Source of the DNA: Octopus sinensis
Taxonomy: Eukaryota
DNA: 64,000 nt
Direction: 5' to 3'
NCBI RefSeq assembly: GCF_006345805.1
Contig: NC_043006.1
Coordinates: forward strand, 32,922,001-32,986,000
A model generated the notes under the pieces. That model was not told where the DNA came from, did no database searches, and saw only the letters and a program-made list of their open reading frames with translations. Positions 6,166 through 62,900 of this stretch are shown here, piece by piece. Numbering within the stretch: position 1 is the stretch's first letter; every line of letters begins with the position of its first letter. The position numbers and the translations under genes were made by a program.

Positions 6166-7744
<1,579 letters not shown>

Positions 7745-8243: not shown

Positions 8244-10253
8244 TAAATTCATAAAAGTCAAATTATAAATGAAACCATTAAAAAATCACCAAAGACATAC
8301 ATACACACACCTAATCCGGGGGACCTAAAACTACGACCCATTGTAGCTGGCCCAACCTGTGAAACACACAGACTAAGTCTACTTATGGACATCCTCTTGA
8401 AACCCTTCCTTAAACATATCGATAGCCATATCAGAGATGACTTAGATATGTTAAACCACCTCCCAAAAAAAACCAAGGAAGAAACAATCCTGGTTTCATT
8501 TGATGTAGTCAACTTGTATACCAGTATTCCTCATAATTATGGACTGGAGGCAATACAATTCTGGTTAGACCAATTTCCGGAAGAAATACCAAAAAGGATC
8601 AGTAAGGAATTCATTACTAAATCAATTGAATTCATCCTACACAATAACCACTTCATGTTTGACAATACATTTTACCGTCAAAAATCCGGAATTGCTATGG
8701 GTACAAGGGCAGCACCAGTCATTGCGAACTTAACAATGGGATACATGGAAATAATCATTTACCAGGAATCTCTATCAATCTTTGGAAACTCCCTCTCTCA
8801 ATACATAAAAGAGAATTGGAAACGATTCCTAGACGATTGTTTCATTCTCTGGAATGAAAACATAGATAAACTCCTAAAATTTAAAAACCTATTGAACAGC
8901 ATAAACCCAAATATACAGTTCACAATGGAATACAACCAAAAGGAGCTCCCGTTCTTGGATATACTAATTAAAAAATTAACCTTAAAATAGAAACAGACAT
9001 TTTTTACAAAGCCACAGACGCCAAACAATACCTTCTTTTTAATTCATGCCACCCAAGACACACTAAAACAAACATCCCCTTCAACCTTGCAAGAAGGATA
9101 TGCACAATAGTGTCAGAACAAAATACCAGGAACTTTAGACTGCAAGTACTCAAAAACACCCTAATTGACAGACATTACCCAGCTCAACTCATAGAGGATG
9201 GGATCAGACGTGCAACAGAAATCAACAAAGAAACTTTAAGAAAAGTTCAACACAACAACACACCTTCCCCGAAAATACTACCTTACATATCTACATACAA
9301 CCCCAGAAACAAAGAAGCCTTCACCATCATCACCCAGAATTTACCAATACTTCATAAAAACCCAAAATTAAAGGAAATTCTAAACATACACCAAATCATT
9401 AAAAGCTACAAACAGCCTAAATCACTTAAAAAGATTCTCACAAAGGCAAAATTGTCTTCTAAAATTACGGATGCAAAAGTAAAAAAATGTGGTAGATCGA
9501 ACTGTGCAACATGTCCTAACCTATTGGAAGGATCAGAATTCTTCTTTAAAGAGGGACAGAAATTTAAGATCAAATCTAACTTTACTTGTGCCTCTGAAAA
9601 CATAATTTATGTTATTAAATGCTCGGGCTGCCACCAAGACTACGTGGGTTCCACGGGACTATCACTCAGGCGCAGATGCACACTGCATCGACAACAGATT
9701 GCATTCCCAGAATATAGAATGATACCTTTTAGTGAGCACATTGAGAAATGCGCAAAGCAACTACTGCCACAATTTTTAATCTTCCCATTTTACCAATGTG
9801 CTTTCGGATCATCAACACAAATGAGACTGAACAAGGAAACATTCTTCATTGAAAAGTACAAACCCAGACTCAACCATCCGAACATACTGACACAGAGAAA
9901 TTAACAAGGAAAAAGGAAAAAATTTTTAAGCGATTATCTCCCCTACACCGGAAAAAATCACTCACTACCTCCCCTTATTTAGAAATCTCCTGGAAATAAA
10001 AACAACGATAATTCCATGCAATATAAACATAACGTCACAAGAAATTTGAAAAGCTACACGCGAAACCGGTAATTTCTTTAAAAATATTTAAAATTATGTT
10101 ATTTTAAGGAAAGGAAAAAAATTTTTCCAATATTCTCCAGACATTTTGACACAAATATATATATTTTTTAACATTTAAGCCTTCTGTCGTTTTTTCACAC
10201 TTTACTATTTTCTTATATATTCACCCACATGCTTTACCAAACAAACTTTCCTA

Positions 10254-17545: not shown

Positions 17546-17626
<81 letters not shown>

Positions 17627-17627
<1 letters not shown>

Positions 17628-17912
17628 TGCTCCTGTCGTTTTTAGCCCCAGAAAGACATCTCCTTCAGCTGGCTAACGACACACTGTATTCGATTAGTAT
17701 TTGCGAGGGGAGGTCATCGCTTCCATCTCTAGCCTTACGTGATACACACAGACCCGGGTTTCTGGATAGTTACCCGTCTTCAGTGTGTGATAATCACCAG
17801 CTAGTGATGAAAACTCATTCCACTCGCAAAATACTACATGCTTTCTCACCGTCTCGAAAAAGGAGAAATAAGCTATATTAAATCTCTGAGCGAGAGGCAA
17901 ACAGTAACAGTA
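17627..17912 (-). mobile_element. Hammerhead-containing non-coding repeat unit (candidate retrozyme), between (TA)n tracts
   Basis: Shares blocks with the 39.6-40.4 kb repeat (CCCCAG..A.ACATCT...CAGCTGGCTA; GATAATC...TAG..ATGA; AAATCTCTGAGCGAGA). Internal inverted repeat 17697-17733 / 17800-17836 flanks the ribozyme. Confidence 0.7.
17745..17789 (-). ncRNA. Type I hammerhead ribozyme with canonical core
   Basis: Minus strand: CACACA-CTGAAGA-C-GGGT(AACT)ATCC-A-GAAA-CCCGGG-TC-TGTGTG. 6-bp stem I, CUGANGA, 4-bp stem II closed by a C.A mismatch, palindromic stem III, GUC triplet. Confidence 0.85.
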
Positions 17913-17920
17913 CGGAATCG

Positions 17921-17955
<35 letters not shown>

Positions 17956-30342: not shown

Positions 30343-30422
30343 CTGGAGCGTCGAAAACTATTTGAAGTCAAATTAATGTGTGTATATACATATTTTATAT
30401 TTCGTTTTTCTTCTTTTTACAG

Positions 30423-30530
30423 GTCTTTACTGCAACGGAACATTCGATTCGATCTTATGTTGGCCAGCTACAAAAGCAGGAGAAGTCGTTCGACAAAAAT
30501 GCCCACGTTTAAGAGGACTTGACCCTAATC
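30423..30530 (+). CDS. Pdfr: Internal exon of a class B (secretin-like) GPCR, hormone-binding ectodomain; PDF-receptor-like
   Basis: Polypyrimidine tract + CAG acceptor (ttctttttacag, AG at 30421-22) and GT donor at 30531 (gtaatg); 108 nt, phase 1 at both ends. Encodes (G)LYCNGTFDSILCWPATKAGEVVRQKCPRLRGLDPN, the C-x3-[FW]D-x3-CWP...CP motif of the class B hormone receptor domain. Confidence 0.88.
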
Positions 30531-31072
30531 GTAATGTTAATTTTTTTTTTTCAGTATATATTCTTTTGTATTCTATACTGCGATCTTAATGTTGTAGTTG
30601 ATGTAATTTTTTGCTATTATAGATGTTGGTCACGTGATGTTGTTGACGAGGATTTATGTTGCGAATATGGTGGTGGTGGTGGTGGTGGTGGTGGTGGTGA
30701 CGGTGGTTGTATTGTCTCCTTTAAGACTTTAGGCGATAGATTTAATACATTGCTCGCTGTAATAAGTAGACTCGATCCTTGCGTGGCTTTACTAAGGTTA
30801 AATAACCGGAACAAGTCTTCCTTGCTTCTTCCGGCAAAAGATATTATGAACGCTGCTCCTCCTTACCCGACGAACGAGTGAGAAATAAACAACCCATATG
30901 AAGTGCGTGTTGATGTTGTTTGTGCCGTTATTGTTGCTTAGCACCAGGTCAGTCCTGATGTAGCACACCCATGATCAAAGGTATTCGAACTTCGACAGTT
31001 TCTTAATCTTCTCTCTCTATCTCCTTGTTTGTGTGTGTGTACGTGTGTGTATGTGTGCGTCTGTGTGTATGT

Positions 31073-38705: not shown

Positions 38706-39821
38706 AGTAACAAACGATAAAAGACAAACTATAAATACGTTTCAACAAATCAAGAGAAAGCAAATTCTATTCCTACATTTCTTATTATTCTTCCCAATTT
38801 CAAACATGATCGTTTCACCCATTTGTGTCTGGTTCATTAACCTATATAATTCATCACAACTCTTTCAGCAAATTTCTCATGTAATTTACAGTGAGTTCAT
38901 TTTGAAAGGACGTTGTACATATTTCAACACAAAATGACACGTTTATCCTTTGTTATCCAACAACGATTTCAATGGATTCAGGTTTGTCATGACATCTGCC
39001 AACTCCACGCTACATCTTGCACATCCAGCAGCGTAAGAATCACAGACAAATTTCCTTTGCGTTAGTTTATATGAAGATACGAATCTCTTCCCATATAAAT
39101 TCTGTATTATGGATCTATTGTAAAAACATCATGCATGTTTGTTCATACTTTTCGTGTGTTTTCACGTGATTAGGTTGTATTTAACATAAGTATAAGTTCC
39201 ATATCAAATTCGATCTGCCAATTAACAGAGATTTGAGAATATGAAAGATTACAAATGGATGCGACATCATTTCCATAAACTCTACGTGATATGACAAATT
39301 GTTTGTATGCAATTATTTCTCGCCTCGGTGAAATATATGCTTGAGTGTTGAAACATAATTATAGATTTATATCTACAGCAACCACACGTTCATTTTGAAT
39401 TTACTAAAAACGTGCAAACGAACGTATTCTTTCACAGGTTCCTTCTATCCCTCGCCTCTATATGGAGAAGATGGAAAAAGGAAACTGCCACAGTGTCATG
39501 CTTCTTTCACATCCAACTCAATTTCTATTACTTCTTTAATATTGCAGGATTTCTTATCTGTTCAGAAATAATTTTTATCATTTAATTGGAGAAATGTTAA
39601 AAAAAGAAGAAAGCAATTAGTTTTAAATCTCTGAGCGAGAAGTAAGTAGAAACAAGTAGTAAAATCTATTTGCCAACGTAAATTGTTAGTCCTGATTGAG
39701 ACGATGTTACTACCTTTTTTTTTCTCCAGGAAAACGTATTTTCCAGCTGGCTATCGGCGCGCAGCTGTGTCCTTATGCCTCGAACAAGGGAGCTAATGTC
39801 CCCAATGTGATTTTAACAGTA

Positions 39822-39865
39822 CCTGAGGACCATGGTTCTGAGTTATTTCTTTTCATCGGCATATG
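39822..39865 (-). ncRNA. Degenerate hammerhead-like motif, paralogue of 40165-40210
   Basis: Minus strand CATATG-CCGATGA-AAAGAAATAACTCA-GAA-CCATGG-TC-CTCAGG; one A of GAAA lost and stem I mismatched. Confidence 0.45.
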
Positions 39866-40164
39866 ATAATCGTTGGTTAGAAATGACAGCGCTAGCCTTG
39901 TTCGAGGTATAAGGACGCAGTAGTGCGTTGGTAGCCAGCTGGTAAAGATGTTTTCATGGGGTTAAAAAAAGGTAGTAACATCGTCCTAATCAGGACTGCC
40001 AATTTACGTTGGCAAATATATTTTACTCTGAGTACTGTTATTACTTATTTCTCGCTCAGAGATTTAAAACTAATTGTTTCCTTTACCAGATCAGTGACTG
40101 TGTGTCACTTTAAAGTGTATACCTCGAACAAGGTCTAGCGTTGCCATCTCTAGCCAACGGTTAT

Positions 40165-40210
40165 CCTGTGCCGATGAAGATTAAATAACTCAGAAACCAT
40201 GGTCCGCAGG
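40165..40210 (+). ncRNA. Type I hammerhead-like motif (CCGAUGA core)
   Basis: CCTGTG-CCGATGA-AGATTAAATAACTCA-GAAA-CCATGG-TC-CGCAGG: 6-bp stem I, palindromic stem III, GUC; U4C change and weak stem II. Confidence 0.65.
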
Positions 40211-40501
40211 TCCGCAGGTACCGTTTAAGGCTGAGTGGAGACATTAGCTAGCTTGTTCGAGGTATAAGGACGCAGTTGTGCGTCGGTAGCCGACTAGAAA
40301 AGATATTTTCCTGGGGCTGAAAAAAGGTAGAAACAGTAACATCAACTTACTCAGGAATGCCGATTTACGTTGGCAAATACATTTTACAGTGTTCAAGAAG
40401 ATTGCGTTAAAATACGTTTAGAGCTGCAGAGATTATTAGATTATGTGGTTTTGCATAATACTTTCCGCGATATATATCTAATGCATACATACATACATAC
40501 A

Positions 40502-40657: not shown

Positions 40658-41502
40658 GCATATGTCGACAACACCACTTAACATGTATACTGAAATAAAA
40701 AGTTCATTGCAACAACCTTAATAAATAAATATGATTTTGAAGCGTGCGAAAACAGACGATGCAAGAAGAAATAATGTGAAATGGCTGAAGGCGTACGGCC
40801 TTTTACAGCGATAATGAAAGTAGGAACAGCAACAAGCAGCAATTGACTGAAGTGGTGCTCTTACACGTACCTTTTACAGATGACCTTTCAAACGACTTCT
40901 ACAAGCACAAGTGGAATTTAAATAGGTATTAACGCCGAAACAGCTACAGTCTGAAGTGATTTCTTATTCCCTATCGTGTAGAATTTTCAATGTGTCATTC
41001 TAGCATTGCTGATATTGATGAGACTTAGAGCTAATCATTCTAAGTAGCTCCGCAATCAGGTAACTATGCAATATTTCTTAAGCCTTATGCATAAATTATT
41101 CTGTAGATTCTTGCAGTTTTTCATTATCATTCTTCTCAATGAGCCGATGGTCATTGTGTTGTTCTTTTACCTTTTGTGTTGTTCTTGTACCACGTGTAAC
41201 AATTAGCAATGTGTTCTGTTATAACAGTTAGAGGCAGGTGATTAACTTTTAATCTTTGTTCTTGTATTATGCTGTCTTAGCCTGATTAGTAAGAACGTTA
41301 ATGGGAAATGTAAGCAGATGTTGTTTTCGTATTATTTGATGGATATTAAATATTGTGGTTCTTTTAACGTTCACTGCAACTTCATTTTCCAGCATGGACA
41401 TAAAGATATCGTTCTCATTTTTAGTCACTTTAATTTAATCATTCAAATTGGCTTTATGCTTGTTGAAATGAAAATGTAGTTTCGAAAGCTTCCTTTGTTA
41501 TA

Positions 41503-41643
41503 TAAGGTTGTCCCAAAAGTTCGTAGAAAGTCTTGGAAAATAATGGTCATTATTTTGAGGAATAATTTTTGTTGTTTTTGTTAGTACTTGGCGAGTAAAA
41601 ATTCAATTTTCGCAAGTGTTTACGAACTTTTGGGACAACCTAA
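41503..41643. mobile_element. Mariner-type MITE (about 140 bp)
   Basis: TIR AGGTTGTCCCAAAAGTTCGTA / TACGAACTTTTGGGACAACCT with TA flanks. Confidence 0.85.
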
Positions 41644-42765
41644 TAATATGAAATTCATGAACAAAAGAGTATTGAGAAATGTATTAACTTCAATTTTAAA
41701 ACGAAGCAAACTCTAAGGTAGGGAATGTAAGGTTAGCCTGTTTCTCGACGATGAGGCCACGTTGACTTCAATATCGTGTGTGCTTCACATGAATGCTTTT
41801 AGTGTTTTTTAATGGTATTGCGTCTTTTGTTCTGTTTATTGTTTTGTTTTTTATCTAAAGTAGCAATATAGTGATTCACCTGAGATGAAATGGCATCTTG
41901 CGTAATTAGCAATATTTACAATTTGAAATTGTAAGTCTTTTAAAGGTATCTTAAGAATTTCATTTAGATATTGAATGAGGACAAAAACAGCGTAATTGAG
42001 GTTAATGTTTTATTTGATAAAGTTTTTCAAATGAGAAAGCTAACGGATGTTGAGCTTTAAATTCCAGATATTTTAAAGATGTTGTGTCGTTATCAACTTC
42101 TTATTTTAATTACATAATACAAAAGACTCCTTATTAAGTTTAATTATAGCAAAAAGTGTGATTACTGCCATAGTGAATGCGTGTTTTGAGGAAAACGTTT
42201 TCGGTCGAAAAGGTTGTGTCTTTATGTAAAAGGAATTTTTCTATGAAGCTTTCACACCATGAAGACTTCTTAATCATTAATAAAGAAAGCATTCAATTAA
42301 AGCTAATGAAACTGCTACCTATAAAAACAACTGAAAACTAAAATGTTGTCTTGTATATTTATTTTTAATACAATCCGGTATATTTGAAAATATTAGAAGT
42401 AGATGTTCAAGTCAAAGTTTTGATCGTCGTTGTTGACTGTGCATAGGACGATTTATTATCGGTTAGCTGATATTAACACGCATCAACAAAGAATCTATTT
42501 GCTGAATTTATAAACAAGAGCTTCGACTCAATTTTCATTAATTCTGTGTCACTTCTGGTTGAGGAGGCACAGAAATGTCAAAACGTCGGCTGTGCTAGAG
42601 TCCCGTGCGTTAATAAATCTCGTATATGCTGTAAACACATTTCGACATGAAATGTACGTTTTGAATAGTAATCTAACTTACATATTTAGTAAAACAACAA
42701 CAAAAACAACAAATAACATAGCAAATTAGATGAAATCAATATTGTATTATATATGATAAAAATTG

Positions 42766-46700: not shown

Positions 46701-47190
46701 TTTCCACAGTTTGGCCGTCCACATATTTTAATCGTTGTCTTTGTAGTTGTTGTGTAAAGCTTTGCATTTGTTTGATGTATTTTTAGCTATTTAGGTTGCT
46801 TTTTGCATTTGGTGAACTTTGAGAATGTTATTCATTTTTGGATCTCTAGAGAGCATAGGTAGATTTTGTACAATAGTGTTGTATGCCTCATTGTTTCTCG
46901 GGTTGTGAATTGATATATACAGTAGTGTTTTGAGATGAGGTGTGACGTTACGGTTTGTTACCCTTAGTGTTTTAATGTCTTATTTCTAGAACGTTTAATT
47001 CCATCGTCTATAAGTGAGGGTGGATATTATCTTTCAGCTAGTGTTGTTCTGAGGTGTTGAAGACGAATGTCCCAAGTATTTCTATCAGACAATATTGTAC
47101 AAATCCTTTTTCCTAAATTAAAGGGGACATTTATTTTGACGTGTTTCGGGTGGCATGTGCTAAACAGGAGGTATTGCTAGGAGTCTTGGT
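46701..47190 (-). mobile_element. Penelope-like (Neptune-type) fragment: RT thumb to Zn-finger
   Basis: Minus strand QYLLFSTCHPKHVKINVPFNLGKRICTI...HNPRNNEAYNTIVQNLP...KICGRPNCGT, homologous to the 9.0-9.5 kb region. Confidence 0.85.
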
Positions 47191-55905: not shown

Positions 55906-56118
55906 GCAACAGCAACAGCAACTGCAGCGACAAACATGTTGTGTAATACGTGTCTGTACGTTCAGAGTTCAATTCTCATCTACATTTCTCCCATTCTTAG
56001 GTTAATGAAATAGGTATCGGTGACATCTAATTTTAAAAGTGCCTGATCTTGTACCAATGTAGAATATTCCTTTTATTCCTCTTGTTATTCTTAATATTTT
56101 CATTTTTATTATTTAAAG

Positions 56119-56282
56119 GTTTCAGTGAACGTCGTTGTGGACTTGACGGCTATTGGTTGGGCAAATATCAAAATGAGACTTCAAATACAAATGGATGGAC
56201 AAATTATACAGGATGCTATATACCGGAGGTTTGGGATATTTACAGTAAAATGTTCGTCGATAAACCAGAAGCGACCAAATTG
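56119..56282 (+). CDS. Pdfr: Next exon of the same class B GPCR ectodomain; PDF-receptor-like
   Basis: T-rich tract + AAG acceptor (AG 56117-18), donor GTTAGT at 56283. Joins the previous exon in frame (C+GT = Arg): RFSERRCGLDGYWLGKYQNETSNTNGWTNYTGCYIPEVWDIYSKMFVDKPEATKL. The C-x-LDG-x-W...GWT-x-Y-x2-CY-x-PE pattern resembles the insect PDF receptor as I recall it; orthology not tested. Confidence 0.85.
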
Positions 56283-59820: not shown

Positions 59821-62800
59821 CCAAGACCCTTGACAATGAAATGCAGATTGAAATCTCAAAACACTGTGAAGGAGCACTCCTTGATGAAACCACCAAACTC
59901 TGGAGAAAAACTGCGAGGATGAAGAACTAACATCCCTCCAGCGAATGGAAAAAAACAGCTGGTTCACCAATTATGAAACAGAGTTCACAAAGGAACACCT
60001 TTCAAGCAACCCATATTTTAAAATATCTACTTCAAATCACACCCCTCGCCAAAAACAAAGAAAACCAACCACAAAACACCGAACACGCACCACCCCTAAC
60101 ATCAACAACAACAACAACAGAACTTACAGACAGCACTACAATCCCATCAAAAGAACCGAGACACCCATCATCACAAGACAAAACTTTACCAGACAACGTA
60201 GACCCCAACCCACACAAGAACCGTTCCAGATTCGGAGATCCTACCCTTCACTTAGAAACCCACCTCTGAACTATGATTGTAGATTCCAACCCAAACCGCT
60301 CCTAACTCAGAGTTCTCCCCCAACATATAGGAATTCACTTCTAAACCATGAATATAGTTTCCAACCCACTCTAAGGAACCAACATTACACCCAGGACAAA
60401 CAACCCAGAACCTGGAATAACCAAAACTCTTCCAGGAGGCCACACCAACAACCCAGACCCTGGAACAACCAAAACCTCTTCAACAGACAACATATCAACG
60501 GGGGACAGAATAACAACAACCAAAACCTCTTCAACAGACAACATATCAACGGGGGACAGAATCACATACAGCAAAATACCACAAACAGAAGAACCCCAGG
60601 ATTCCTTTTTTAGGCAAGGGCATCAGTTTCCACGACAACCCAGATGGTAGATACCAATCCCGAAAAACCAAAATAGTGAATCTTTCTAACCTAAACCTGT
60701 CGACACCACAAATAAAAATCCTTTCAAGAGGACTAAAATTCACCCCAACTCCGCAATATACCCTACCTGAGGGAAATACAGGATGACATCTCACACTTTT
60801 GCAGAAAATTACGCCTCACAGAGGAATTTTTTGACAGGAAAATTAATAATAACAAACATTGGTCTGTAACAAAAGCAACTATAATCCCATAAAAGGCAAA
60901 AACAAAACCTTAGACAAATTTTGCGATTACATCTCCAACTTCCCTATGGTGAACTCCCACAACCTAAACTCAAACCCAACACCAGTAAAAGAGAATGGGA
61001 AATCATCCATACGCTACGAGACATCATGACGTCACAATAAAGGAAGCTGATAAGGGTAGTACGGTCGTTGTTATGAATACTGAGCAATATAAAAACTCTG
61101 TATCTCTCCTTTTAGAGGATACCACATACTACTAACGATAGAAAGAGTAGTCGACTACCAGCAATCCAAAACAATGACCAAACTGAAGGCACTCATTTAC
61201 CAACACACCGAATGACTTGACAGCAAAGGAATGCGACTACATTACTAAATTTAATTGCAAAAACCAGCACACTCTATGGGCTTCCAAAAATACACAAGAG
61301 TCAAATTATCACAGAAGCTTGCAAAAAGTCCACTTCACCTGCATCAATATACCACATCCCACTGATCTCAACTGAGACCAATAGTGGCAGGCCCAAGTTG
61401 TGAAACACACAGACTTAGCAACTTTATAGATATCATCTTAAAGCCAATACTGAAACACATTCCAAGTATTGTAAGAGATGACCTGGACCTATTAAATCAT
61501 CTCCCCAAACATACCGAAAAAGACACCTTAATCGTTTCTTTTCTTTTGATGTTATTAATCTTTACACCACAATCCACATGAATATGGACTGAAGCCATTA
61601 AATTCTGGCTGGATAAATATCCCAATGAGATCCGGAAAGAATTAAAAAAGAATTCATAATTGAGGGCCTCAAATTTATTCTGCAAAACAACTTCATGTAT
61701 TTCCACAACAACACTTACAGACAGGTCTCAGGAACTGCAATGGGTACGAAAGTTGCACCTACCTATGCAAACATGGTGATGGCCTACCTGGAATCACATA
61801 TCTATGAAAATCCAAATATAGTACGGCCAGTCTTTCCACAAATACCTGTTGGAGAACTGGAAACGCTACTTAGATGATTGCCTCATCCTATAGTCCCACA
61901 CACTCGACCAACTTATAGACTTCAAAAACCTTATCAACAGTGTAAATAACAACATTCAATTCACAATGGAATATAGTCAGGACCAACTCCCTTTTCTTGA
62001 CATCCTAATCATTAAAAAAGGCGGCAACATTGAAACTGACATCCATTACAAACCCACTGACTCTAAACAATACCTTCTATTCACCTCCAATCACCCAAAA
62101 CACACAAAGACAAATATCCCCTTCAACCTAGCGAGAAGAATCTGCACTATGTCTCAATGACACAACACGAAATAGAAGACTCCGGGAACTAAGGGCAATT
62201 CTTCTCGAAAGACATTACCCGGCATCACTAGTAGACAACGGAATAGAACGGGCCAAATCAATCAACATTCAAGACCTACGAAAACCCAAACACATCCACA
62301 GTACAGTAAATAGCCTCCCCTATCTCTCAACACACAACCCAAGGAATGCAGAAGCTTACACTATTATATAAACATTCCACAACTAAATCAAGACCCACGC
62401 CTGAAAAAAAATACTGGCAGCTCATAAAAATAATAAAGTAAGAGACAACCTAAATCCCTAAAAAACTCCTCACCAACGCAAATTACAACAACACAAACCA
62501 CCGCCCACCATCAAAAAATGTGGTCGCCCCAACTGCAGACCTGCATCCACCTCATTGAGGGATCGTCGTACAAGTTCCACTCGGGACACACATTCATCAT
62601 AAAAAATAATTTCACGTGCGCATCAAAACATTTACTCTACGTCATAAGGTGTGAAGGATGCCACGAAGACTACATAGGGCAAACGAGCCTTACCCTCAGA
62701 GAAAGAATGACAGTTCACCGACAACAACTGAGGGACCCCTCCACAAGACAGATACCATTAAGTGGACACTTAGACCTTTGTGCACACAATAAGTCCCCCA

Positions 62801-62900
62801 ATTCTTAGTCTTCCCACTATACCAATGCTCGACAACACCACAGACCAAACACGAATAAATAAGGAAAGTAATCTTATTCAAAAATACAGACCACACTAAA
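59816..62900 (+). mobile_element. Longer Penelope-like (Neptune-type) element, multiply frameshifted
   Basis: LSRGLKFTPTP, TIKEADKG, YGLPKIHK, RPIVAGPSCETHRLS, QVSGTAMGT, RYLDD, LPFLDI, LLYVIRCEGCHEDYIGQT (GIY-YIG); starts at (TA)n; 51-bp tandem repeat at 60464-60562. Confidence 0.93.

Follow-up and report, generated by a model that had tools for sequence, protein, structure and literature searches.

The window, a 64,000-nucleotide stretch of Octopus sinensis DNA (contig NC_043006.1), spans part of a class B GPCR gene. Between two exons of its hormone-receptor domain, in the receptor-gene intron to which it had been assigned from the sequence alone, lies a single old insertion from a dispersed 348-bp non-coding family, which we call family A (Table 1). 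The insertion comprises two opposed arms, and the tail found at one of its ends has an internal counterpart at ∼40028–40083.

Table 1. Coordinates of the host-gene exons and of the family A insertion in the window
Feature	Position	Strand	Remarks
Host gene exon, class B GPCR hormone-receptor domain	~30416..30532	+	PF02793, E 2.1e-11; upstream of the element's intron
Host gene exon, second part of hormone-receptor domain	~56094..56282	+	PF02793 positions 39–64, E 0.017
Inverted arm, 5′-truncated, 0.87 unit	39607..39911	-	Runs to the long (L) terminus on its outer 3′ side and so includes the tail
PLE-type tail, ~55 nt between S and L termini	39607..39657	-	Present at one end alone
Remnant of a decayed hammerhead	39822..39865	-	GAAA reduced to GAA; stem I broken
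16-nt arm-arm overlap	39896..39911	.	Formed where the long hairpin has its self-complementary arm
Direct arm, 1.4 head-to-tail units, 5′-truncated	39896..40387	+	Outer 3′ end is the short (S) terminus
Long RNA hairpin, predicted hammerhead at apex	40120..~40265	+	Folding z −5.76
Type I hammerhead motif of the window copy	40165..40210	+	Predicted cut after 40204
8-bp tandem duplication, peculiar to the window copy	40202..40217	+	Directly past the predicted cut site

The unit was originally given as 355 bp. A direct repeat with that spacing is present (84 nt, 87% identity), but the family unit is 348 bp; the larger spacing arises from local insertions in the window copy, including the 8-bp duplication. 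An inverted copy had been placed at 39600–39897, and inverted arms do occur there (132 nt at 85%, 48 nt at 90% and 44 nt at 84% identity; 78–90% overall), although with the bounds now given in Table 1, which include the overlap with the direct arm. Six-frame translation is full of stops and revealed no coding frame, in agreement with the earlier description of the repeat as non-coding.

The plus-strand hammerhead motif pairs 40165–70 with 40205–10 in stem I and continues with a CCGAUGA core (U4C) at 40171–77, a weak stem II, GAAA at 40193–96 and the palindrome CCAUGG at 40197–40202, which forms stem III. As had been described, it lies between inverted arms, at the apex of a hairpin closed by CCTCGAACAAG arms, for which we calculate −58.5 kcal/mol, with none of 200 shuffles folding equally well. 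The window copy contains one hammerhead motif per strand. The sequence-only reading took each of them to be complete, which is correct for the plus strand, whereas the minus-strand motif lacks one A of GAAA and has lost three of its six stem I pairs. Because the plus-strand hammerhead is the sole intact motif, the window locus alone would be unable to cut out a circle, and a copy with one intact motif lies outside what Li et al. 2026 class as an “active” retrozyme locus. The Rfam scan of the window detected neither strand's motif, with no hammerhead among 22 matches at E ≤ 5, and single-sequence folding of the 56-nt motif did not give the hammerhead (z 0.07 relative to shuffles). The window copy is a fossil within an intron and bears no sign of host function.

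Several other elements occupy the window. A further member of the same superfamily sits in (TA)n at 17624–17930 on the minus strand; it is of family E type, and its core reads CTGAAGA and its palindrome CCCGGG. Broken PLE remnants lie on the plus strand at 8247–9901 and ∼60514–62805 (RVT_1, E 2.8e-8; GIY-YIG, E 5.6e-4), and another, judged by likeness of its translation, lies on the minus strand at 46794–47176. The short inverted-repeat element at 41501–41645, which has a weak mir-548 match, is probably a MITE. Positions 6624–7605 of the plus strand carry what we take, from the likeness of the translation, to be a Mariner-like transposase remnant.

Sister families and hammerhead conservation

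The genome-wide search for the unit, proposed along with the sequence-only reading, returned 549 candidates and so identifies a dispersed family; 40 of these were scored and gave 77 matches with 70–93% identity to the window copy. Family A copies have a median identity of 88.6% to their 348-bp majority unit, and the family is therefore old. A search by core pattern produced 50 matches, against none in the reversed control, and revealed the sister families B, ∼70% identical to A, and C. Families D and E were first met beside PLE loci, and a 23-nt motif common to A, D, E and F has 898 exact matches genome-wide (reversed control, 0). Family C has a 361-bp unit and 1409 candidates, family D a 352-bp unit and 2067 candidates; copies of each have a median identity of 98.3% to their own majority, and by this measure both families are young. 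Identity among A, C and D is 59–61%, compared with 48% for shuffled sequences. By these comparisons, family A is accompanied by at least four sister families, with six families (A–F) in the superfamily.

Six-frame translation of the family A unit, which has a GC content of 44%, indicates no protein coding, and the majority units of C and D, read by eye, encode no protein of note. No LTR structure was seen in the window copy or in the insertions of families A, C and D. We discarded a reading frame starting, as in the anole PLE, from an ATG within the core: it is short in A, and the majority units of C and D, read by eye, do not conserve it. The inverted junction accounts for a second core-pattern match for family C (at L047), which was rejected as artefactual. 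Two more repeat units also bear a hammerhead; one has a ∼456-bp period (L110:2436–3029) and the other is in inverted arrangement (L113:3985–4870), and each apparently represents another retrozyme-like family.

Conservation of the core and stems, suggested earlier as a check on the retrozyme reading, was assessed in 22 hand-picked, related copies from the six families, with 500 shuffles. The hammerhead stems are paired in 92.1% of cells, compared with 75.0 ± 1.3% after shuffling, and double changes occur in 98 cells compared with 35.5 (0/500 shuffles as good for either measure), while slid-register controls were 26–40% paired; two of the five covariation measures failed to beat the shuffles (60/500 and 121/500). 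Double changes affect five of the six stem I pairs. Stem II is 83% paired across all families and weak in A. The stem III hexamer remains self-complementary even as it changes, occurring as CCATGG, CTCGAG, CTCGGG (with a G·U) and CCCGGG. With the outer letters fixed by the search expression, and B loci chosen by the CCATGG hexamer, CCATGG was found in 20 of 23 family A and 43 of 43 family C motifs matched, and the 41 D motifs divide into 17 with CTCGAG and 24 with CTCGGG. Such a predicted self-complementary stem III fits dimeric cleavage as set out in passages of PMC4209133. Direct inspection also identified compensatory arm sequences of the long hairpin in families B–E, and the majority units folded as circles give z values of −7.9, −6.2 and −8.2 (60 shuffles each).

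The catalytic core is more variable. Among 52 family A cores (duplicates kept here as in C and D, and six loci chosen by core pattern), CCGATGA (U4C) occurs 22 times, CTGATGA eight times and CCAATGA six times; the latter two look like CpG decay products of the first. The U4C core is present in three families, A and B among these. Genomic C cores are UUGAYGA in 35 of 47 cases (C3U, with G8 unchanged), and D has the canonical CUGAUGA in 48 of 53. Passages of PMC3088659 describe considerably lower activity of U4C in vitro, with viroid infection still possible. In most of its copies, young family C has spread with a core that is probably crippled. At the family C loci L114–L143, core positions 3 and 4 switch jointly, as CC or UU.

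Considered together, multi-copy non-coding units, a covarying type I hammerhead and a palindromic stem III bear out the original proposal of a retrozyme family, and by these sequence-level tests it is a metazoan non-LTR retrozyme with a predicted hammerhead. The earlier observation as a whole was largely right and is confirmed in part.

Insertion ends and the copied template

Positions within the unit are counted from 1 directly after the predicted cut site, and three duplicate loci were removed. The insertions have two fixed 3′ ends, S at ∼170–179 and L at ∼216–228, which are 44–55 nt apart. Arms end at S or L in 56 of 67 cases in A, 48 of 49 in C and 58 of 62 in D, and their 5′ ends are scattered across the unit. 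We could class 56 of 66 two-armed insertions, comprising 54 S+L, two L+L and no S+S, with ten unclassed. One arm of each insertion was preselected by the query, which ended at S for A and at L for C and D and hence acted in opposite directions; the unselected arm was of the complementary type, for which chance gives ∼2e-14 at even odds per arm. The simple inverted-plus-direct layout is found at 21 of 37 A, 22 of 29 C and 20 of 40 D loci, and 35 single-armed insertions were counted. Arm-arm junctions mostly overlap by 0–6 nt; the overlap is longer in the window copy because the hairpin arm supplies the match.

Microsatellites flank 44 of the 56 insertions. Nine of the 12 non-microsatellite insertions have a TSD of at least 9 nt (10–14), compared with 2 of 132 cross pairs; the window insertion, with a match of 6 nt at most, is outside these nine. 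The insertions bear the full PLE signature of random 5′ ends, fixed 3′ ends, TSDs and microsatellite targets. These footprints, namely the S+L ends, the tail and the TSDs, support the use of PLE enzymes that had been suggested for the window copy.

Median arm length is 318, 405 and 316 nt (n = 67, 49 and 62), values that are inflated for C and D, whose loci are the top matches to full-unit queries. The longest arms extend to 2.0, 2.3 and 3.2 units with a fixed period, and two cut sites are spanned by five of 67 arms in A, seven of 49 in C and seven of 62 in D. Long head-to-tail arrays, for which a search had been advised, were not seen in the loci examined.

Many arms run through the predicted cut site (48 of 67 in A, 43 of 49 in C and 42 of 62 in D), and 5′ ends coincide with it in three, one and two cases, against 1.9, 1.4 and 1.8 expected, so there is no pile-up. 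A cleaved linear monomer copied once is therefore insufficient as the template. At 16 polymorphic sites in C, 0.4% differ between the arms of one insertion, 1.8% between laps and 38% between loci; the corresponding values for D are 11%, 8% and 30%. The old family A has weak homogeneity, with 22–23% within a locus and 26% between loci. The low arm-arm difference within C and D loci implies that both arms derive from the same template variant, although within-locus homogeneity could come from gene conversion instead.

A cyclic 31-mer contig has the length of the unit plus 30. Family C, in four sequencing runs guessed to be RNA, gave 390-nt contigs (360 + 30) in two runs and a joint back by 359 in a third, which is weak evidence, as tandems collapse alike. 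The C contigs from these runs mostly carry a CCGAYGA core, unlike the genomic C copies. On balance, we lean towards a ribozyme-made circle as the template.

PLE partners and the route of insertion

Our search for a partner started from GIY-YIG matches and 20 genomic stretches, the ends of which were then compared. The many PLE frames in this genome include intact RT+GIY-YIG frames of 775–883 aa, and they carry the Neptune-type C-x4-C-x2-C linker, a type that goes with Neptune PLEs and a microsatellite bias in passages of PMC8557442. No PLE with an end homologous to A–D was found among 50 PLE loci (46 clusterable endonucleases in 10 clusters), and no unit was contiguous with a PLE frame among the loci examined with 1.5-kb flanks. 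The 35 single-armed insertions have no common adjoining upstream sequence, save for one duplicated locus. A D unit lies beside the PLE of L100, but microsatellites intervene and the unit is oppositely oriented; we take it to be an independent insertion. As far as these sequence comparisons go, the units are independent elements and not PLE pieces.

The commonest PLE family (loci L094–L098 and L101; G000 C1, C3, C6 and C19) is young and has a 781-aa RT-endonuclease frame, an overlapping 479-aa frame upstream and repeated motifs in its 3′ UTR. Its copies terminate in (TA)n and may carry a tail of ∼33 nt; a hammerhead-like U3.A8 motif lies close to the end. A second PLE family (L100/L103; 775 aa) has its own 3′ hammerhead motif (L100 minus strand, ∼4866), which is unrelated to A–D.

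We interpret the units as a non-autonomous hammerhead retroelement, a non-LTR retrozyme with a predicted ribozyme, inserted in trans by PLE enzymes, and assign this reading a probability of roughly 0.8. The enzymes in view are a PLE reverse transcriptase and GIY-YIG endonuclease, and the template is probably circular RNA. Multimeric transcripts would be cut by hammerheads dimerised through the palindromic stem III, and the products ligated into ∼350-nt circles. The TSDs suggest that the PLE protein makes staggered nicks in the two strands, ∼10–14 bp from each other and for the most part within (TA)n or (CT)n. The observed pairing of ends is consistent with internal priming of antisense cDNA by the target ends, one at S and the other at L. 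Synthesis would then pass the cut junction, often exceed one unit and halt at random, as is seen in the arms, and the two cDNAs would be joined head to head, mostly via the short overlaps observed at the junctions. The outcome would be an inverted arm and a partial tandem arm, with the tail at a single end.

More tentatively, at slightly worse than even odds, small circular ribozyme RNAs that are active in the lineage may be inserted by a PLE dimer that primes both staggered-cut ends on one circle at two fixed sites. Some families with U4C or C3U cores might then keep spreading because dimer partners or the PLE protein rescue cleavage. Alternatively, PLE-driven insertion could proceed from an uncleaved linear multimer, by read-through of tandems, or from a template-jumping linear monomer, with a weak or vestigial hammerhead and no need for a circle. 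The recent amplification of C with UUGAYGA cores in 35/47 and the U4C of A and B are in line with this, as are the in vitro PLE insertion of unprocessed RNA without hammerhead cleavage in passages of PMC11167929 and the eight of nine Xenopus retrozyme dimers left uncleaved in those of bioRxiv 10.64898/2026.07.22.740005; contigs of cyclic length, too, arise from tandem transcripts or DNA. However, random 5′ truncation only shortens arrays, yet six families persist with arms of up to 3.2 units; compensatory change has preserved the stems, core and palindrome in families that are ∼60% identical, and D retains CUGAUGA in 48/53. We consider a linear template unlikely, but a serious competitor.

It is improbable that the copies are heavily 5′-truncated ends, that is, multi-unit pLTRs, of an autonomous PLE. 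In passages of PMC8557442 and PMC4209133, PLE insertions are mostly 5′-truncated and hammerheads sit in pLTRs; here, PLE fragments lie within 1.5 kb of 4 of 153 loci retrieved with unit or motif queries, many of which overlap, and a sister unit is present at 2 of the 50 PLE loci. None of these nearby fragments is contiguous with the unit, however, and the single-armed insertions, one duplicate excepted, do not share an upstream sequence. Moreover, the units wrap head to tail up to 3.2 times with a fixed period, and the 3′ ends of the inspected PLE families are unrelated to them. A foldback DNA transposon or MITE with a merely hammerhead-like internal hairpin would account for the inverted repeats that end every two-armed insertion and for the TA that flanks the CCTCGAACAAG arms. 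It is hardly credible given outer ends that differ systematically (S versus L), random arm lengths and inner ends, the many single-armed insertions, TSDs of 10–14 bp, and a single strand that conserves the catalytic core and has covarying stems. The check for uniform TIRs and TSDs, put forward earlier as the mark of a DNA MITE, accordingly went against that reading, with variable arms and random inner ends.

Relation to known retrozymes and PLEs

Metazoan non-LTR retrozymes, as described in passages of PMC7229834 and bioRxiv 10.64898/2026.07.22.740005, are non-coding units of 150–450 bp (350–390 bp in mussel) with a GC content below 50%. The units here resemble them in size (348–361 bp), in GC below 50% and in being non-coding, and also in the type I hammerhead with a 1–2-bp palindromic stem III, the highly self-paired predicted circle, TSDs of more than 4 bp and the presence of PLEs in the same genome. 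Stem II is mismatched at its base, as it is in axolotl HHR_Amex2. In contrast to metazoan retrozymes, the loci examined here are dispersed, inverted insertions of 1–3 units and not long arrays, and their cores depart from the standard, three families having U4C and most genomic copies of C having C3U. In the passages of those two sources, no retrozyme is described with a PLE tail, an inverted arm or S+L pairing.

PLEs are named as a strong candidate for retrozyme mobilisation in the relevant passages of PMC7229834, a proposal repeated in those of the review PMC11722881. For vertebrates, three insects and a coral, bioRxiv 10.64898/2026.07.22.740005 bases the link on co-occurrence together with pLTR homology; tails and inverted insertions are not mentioned in the parts of its main text concerned. 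We found no account in the literature of families A–F or of PLE tails in retrozymes, a statement on which supplementary files may bear; 235 Rfam hammerhead-1 loci appear in a list in a squid genome paper, which does not analyse them.

For PLE insertions themselves, passages of PMC8557442 describe a partial tandem, an adjacent inverted truncated copy and a one-sided tail; those of PMC3846280 give TSDs of 8–10 bp, and those of PMC11167929 equate the tail with the stretch that separates two internal RT start sites. The insertions here share with them 5′ truncation, a partial tandem, an inverted copy, a one-sided tail, AT-rich or microsatellite targets, TSDs on the 8–10-bp scale and two close internal RT starts downstream of the hammerhead. 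They differ in having no reading frame and in a tail of 44–55 nt, compared with a published 30–40 bp. Their start sites almost always differ by end, whereas the in vitro PLE study (PMC11167929, in part) reports no difference between strands.

The non-autonomous Chlamys elements in passages of PMC8557442, such as MRC1, are likewise non-coding PLE dependants, with pLTRs and head-to-tail multimers. They are algal, however, and of a clade mostly without hammerheads; at the 3′ end they generally resemble their autonomous partner, whereas the 50 PLE loci compared here yielded no partner of this kind. Compared with the minimal PLE-associated hammerheads in passages of PMC4209133, the motif here has a 6-bp stem I, extended by the long hairpin, and a stem II of 3–4 bp, and it lies in an independent unit and not in a pLTR.

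These comparisons suggest that the six families likely constitute a new superfamily of non-LTR retrozymes and provide genomic evidence for mobilisation by PLEs, which the literature consulted just proposes. The argument made there is from pLTR homology and co-occurrence, whereas in this genome it is the footprints of insertion that point to PLEs. The value lies in the superfamily, the window copy itself being ordinary. With a template of 350 nt, young copies and PLE frames that are intact, this one genome would be a compact system in which to ask by what means PLEs prime the two DNA ends and whether a circle and the hammerhead are required, and strict S+L pairing on a common template would make PLE priming and retrozyme mobilisation directly testable. 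If the reading of a PLE dimer acting on a circle is true, it would explain the one-sided PLE tail and the inverted copy and would prove directly, from the genome, that retrozymes are parasites of PLEs.

The A, C and D units and the tail of the L094-family PLE all have a short CTC..GAG hairpin 10–17 nt before the L end. It is a candidate recognition element.
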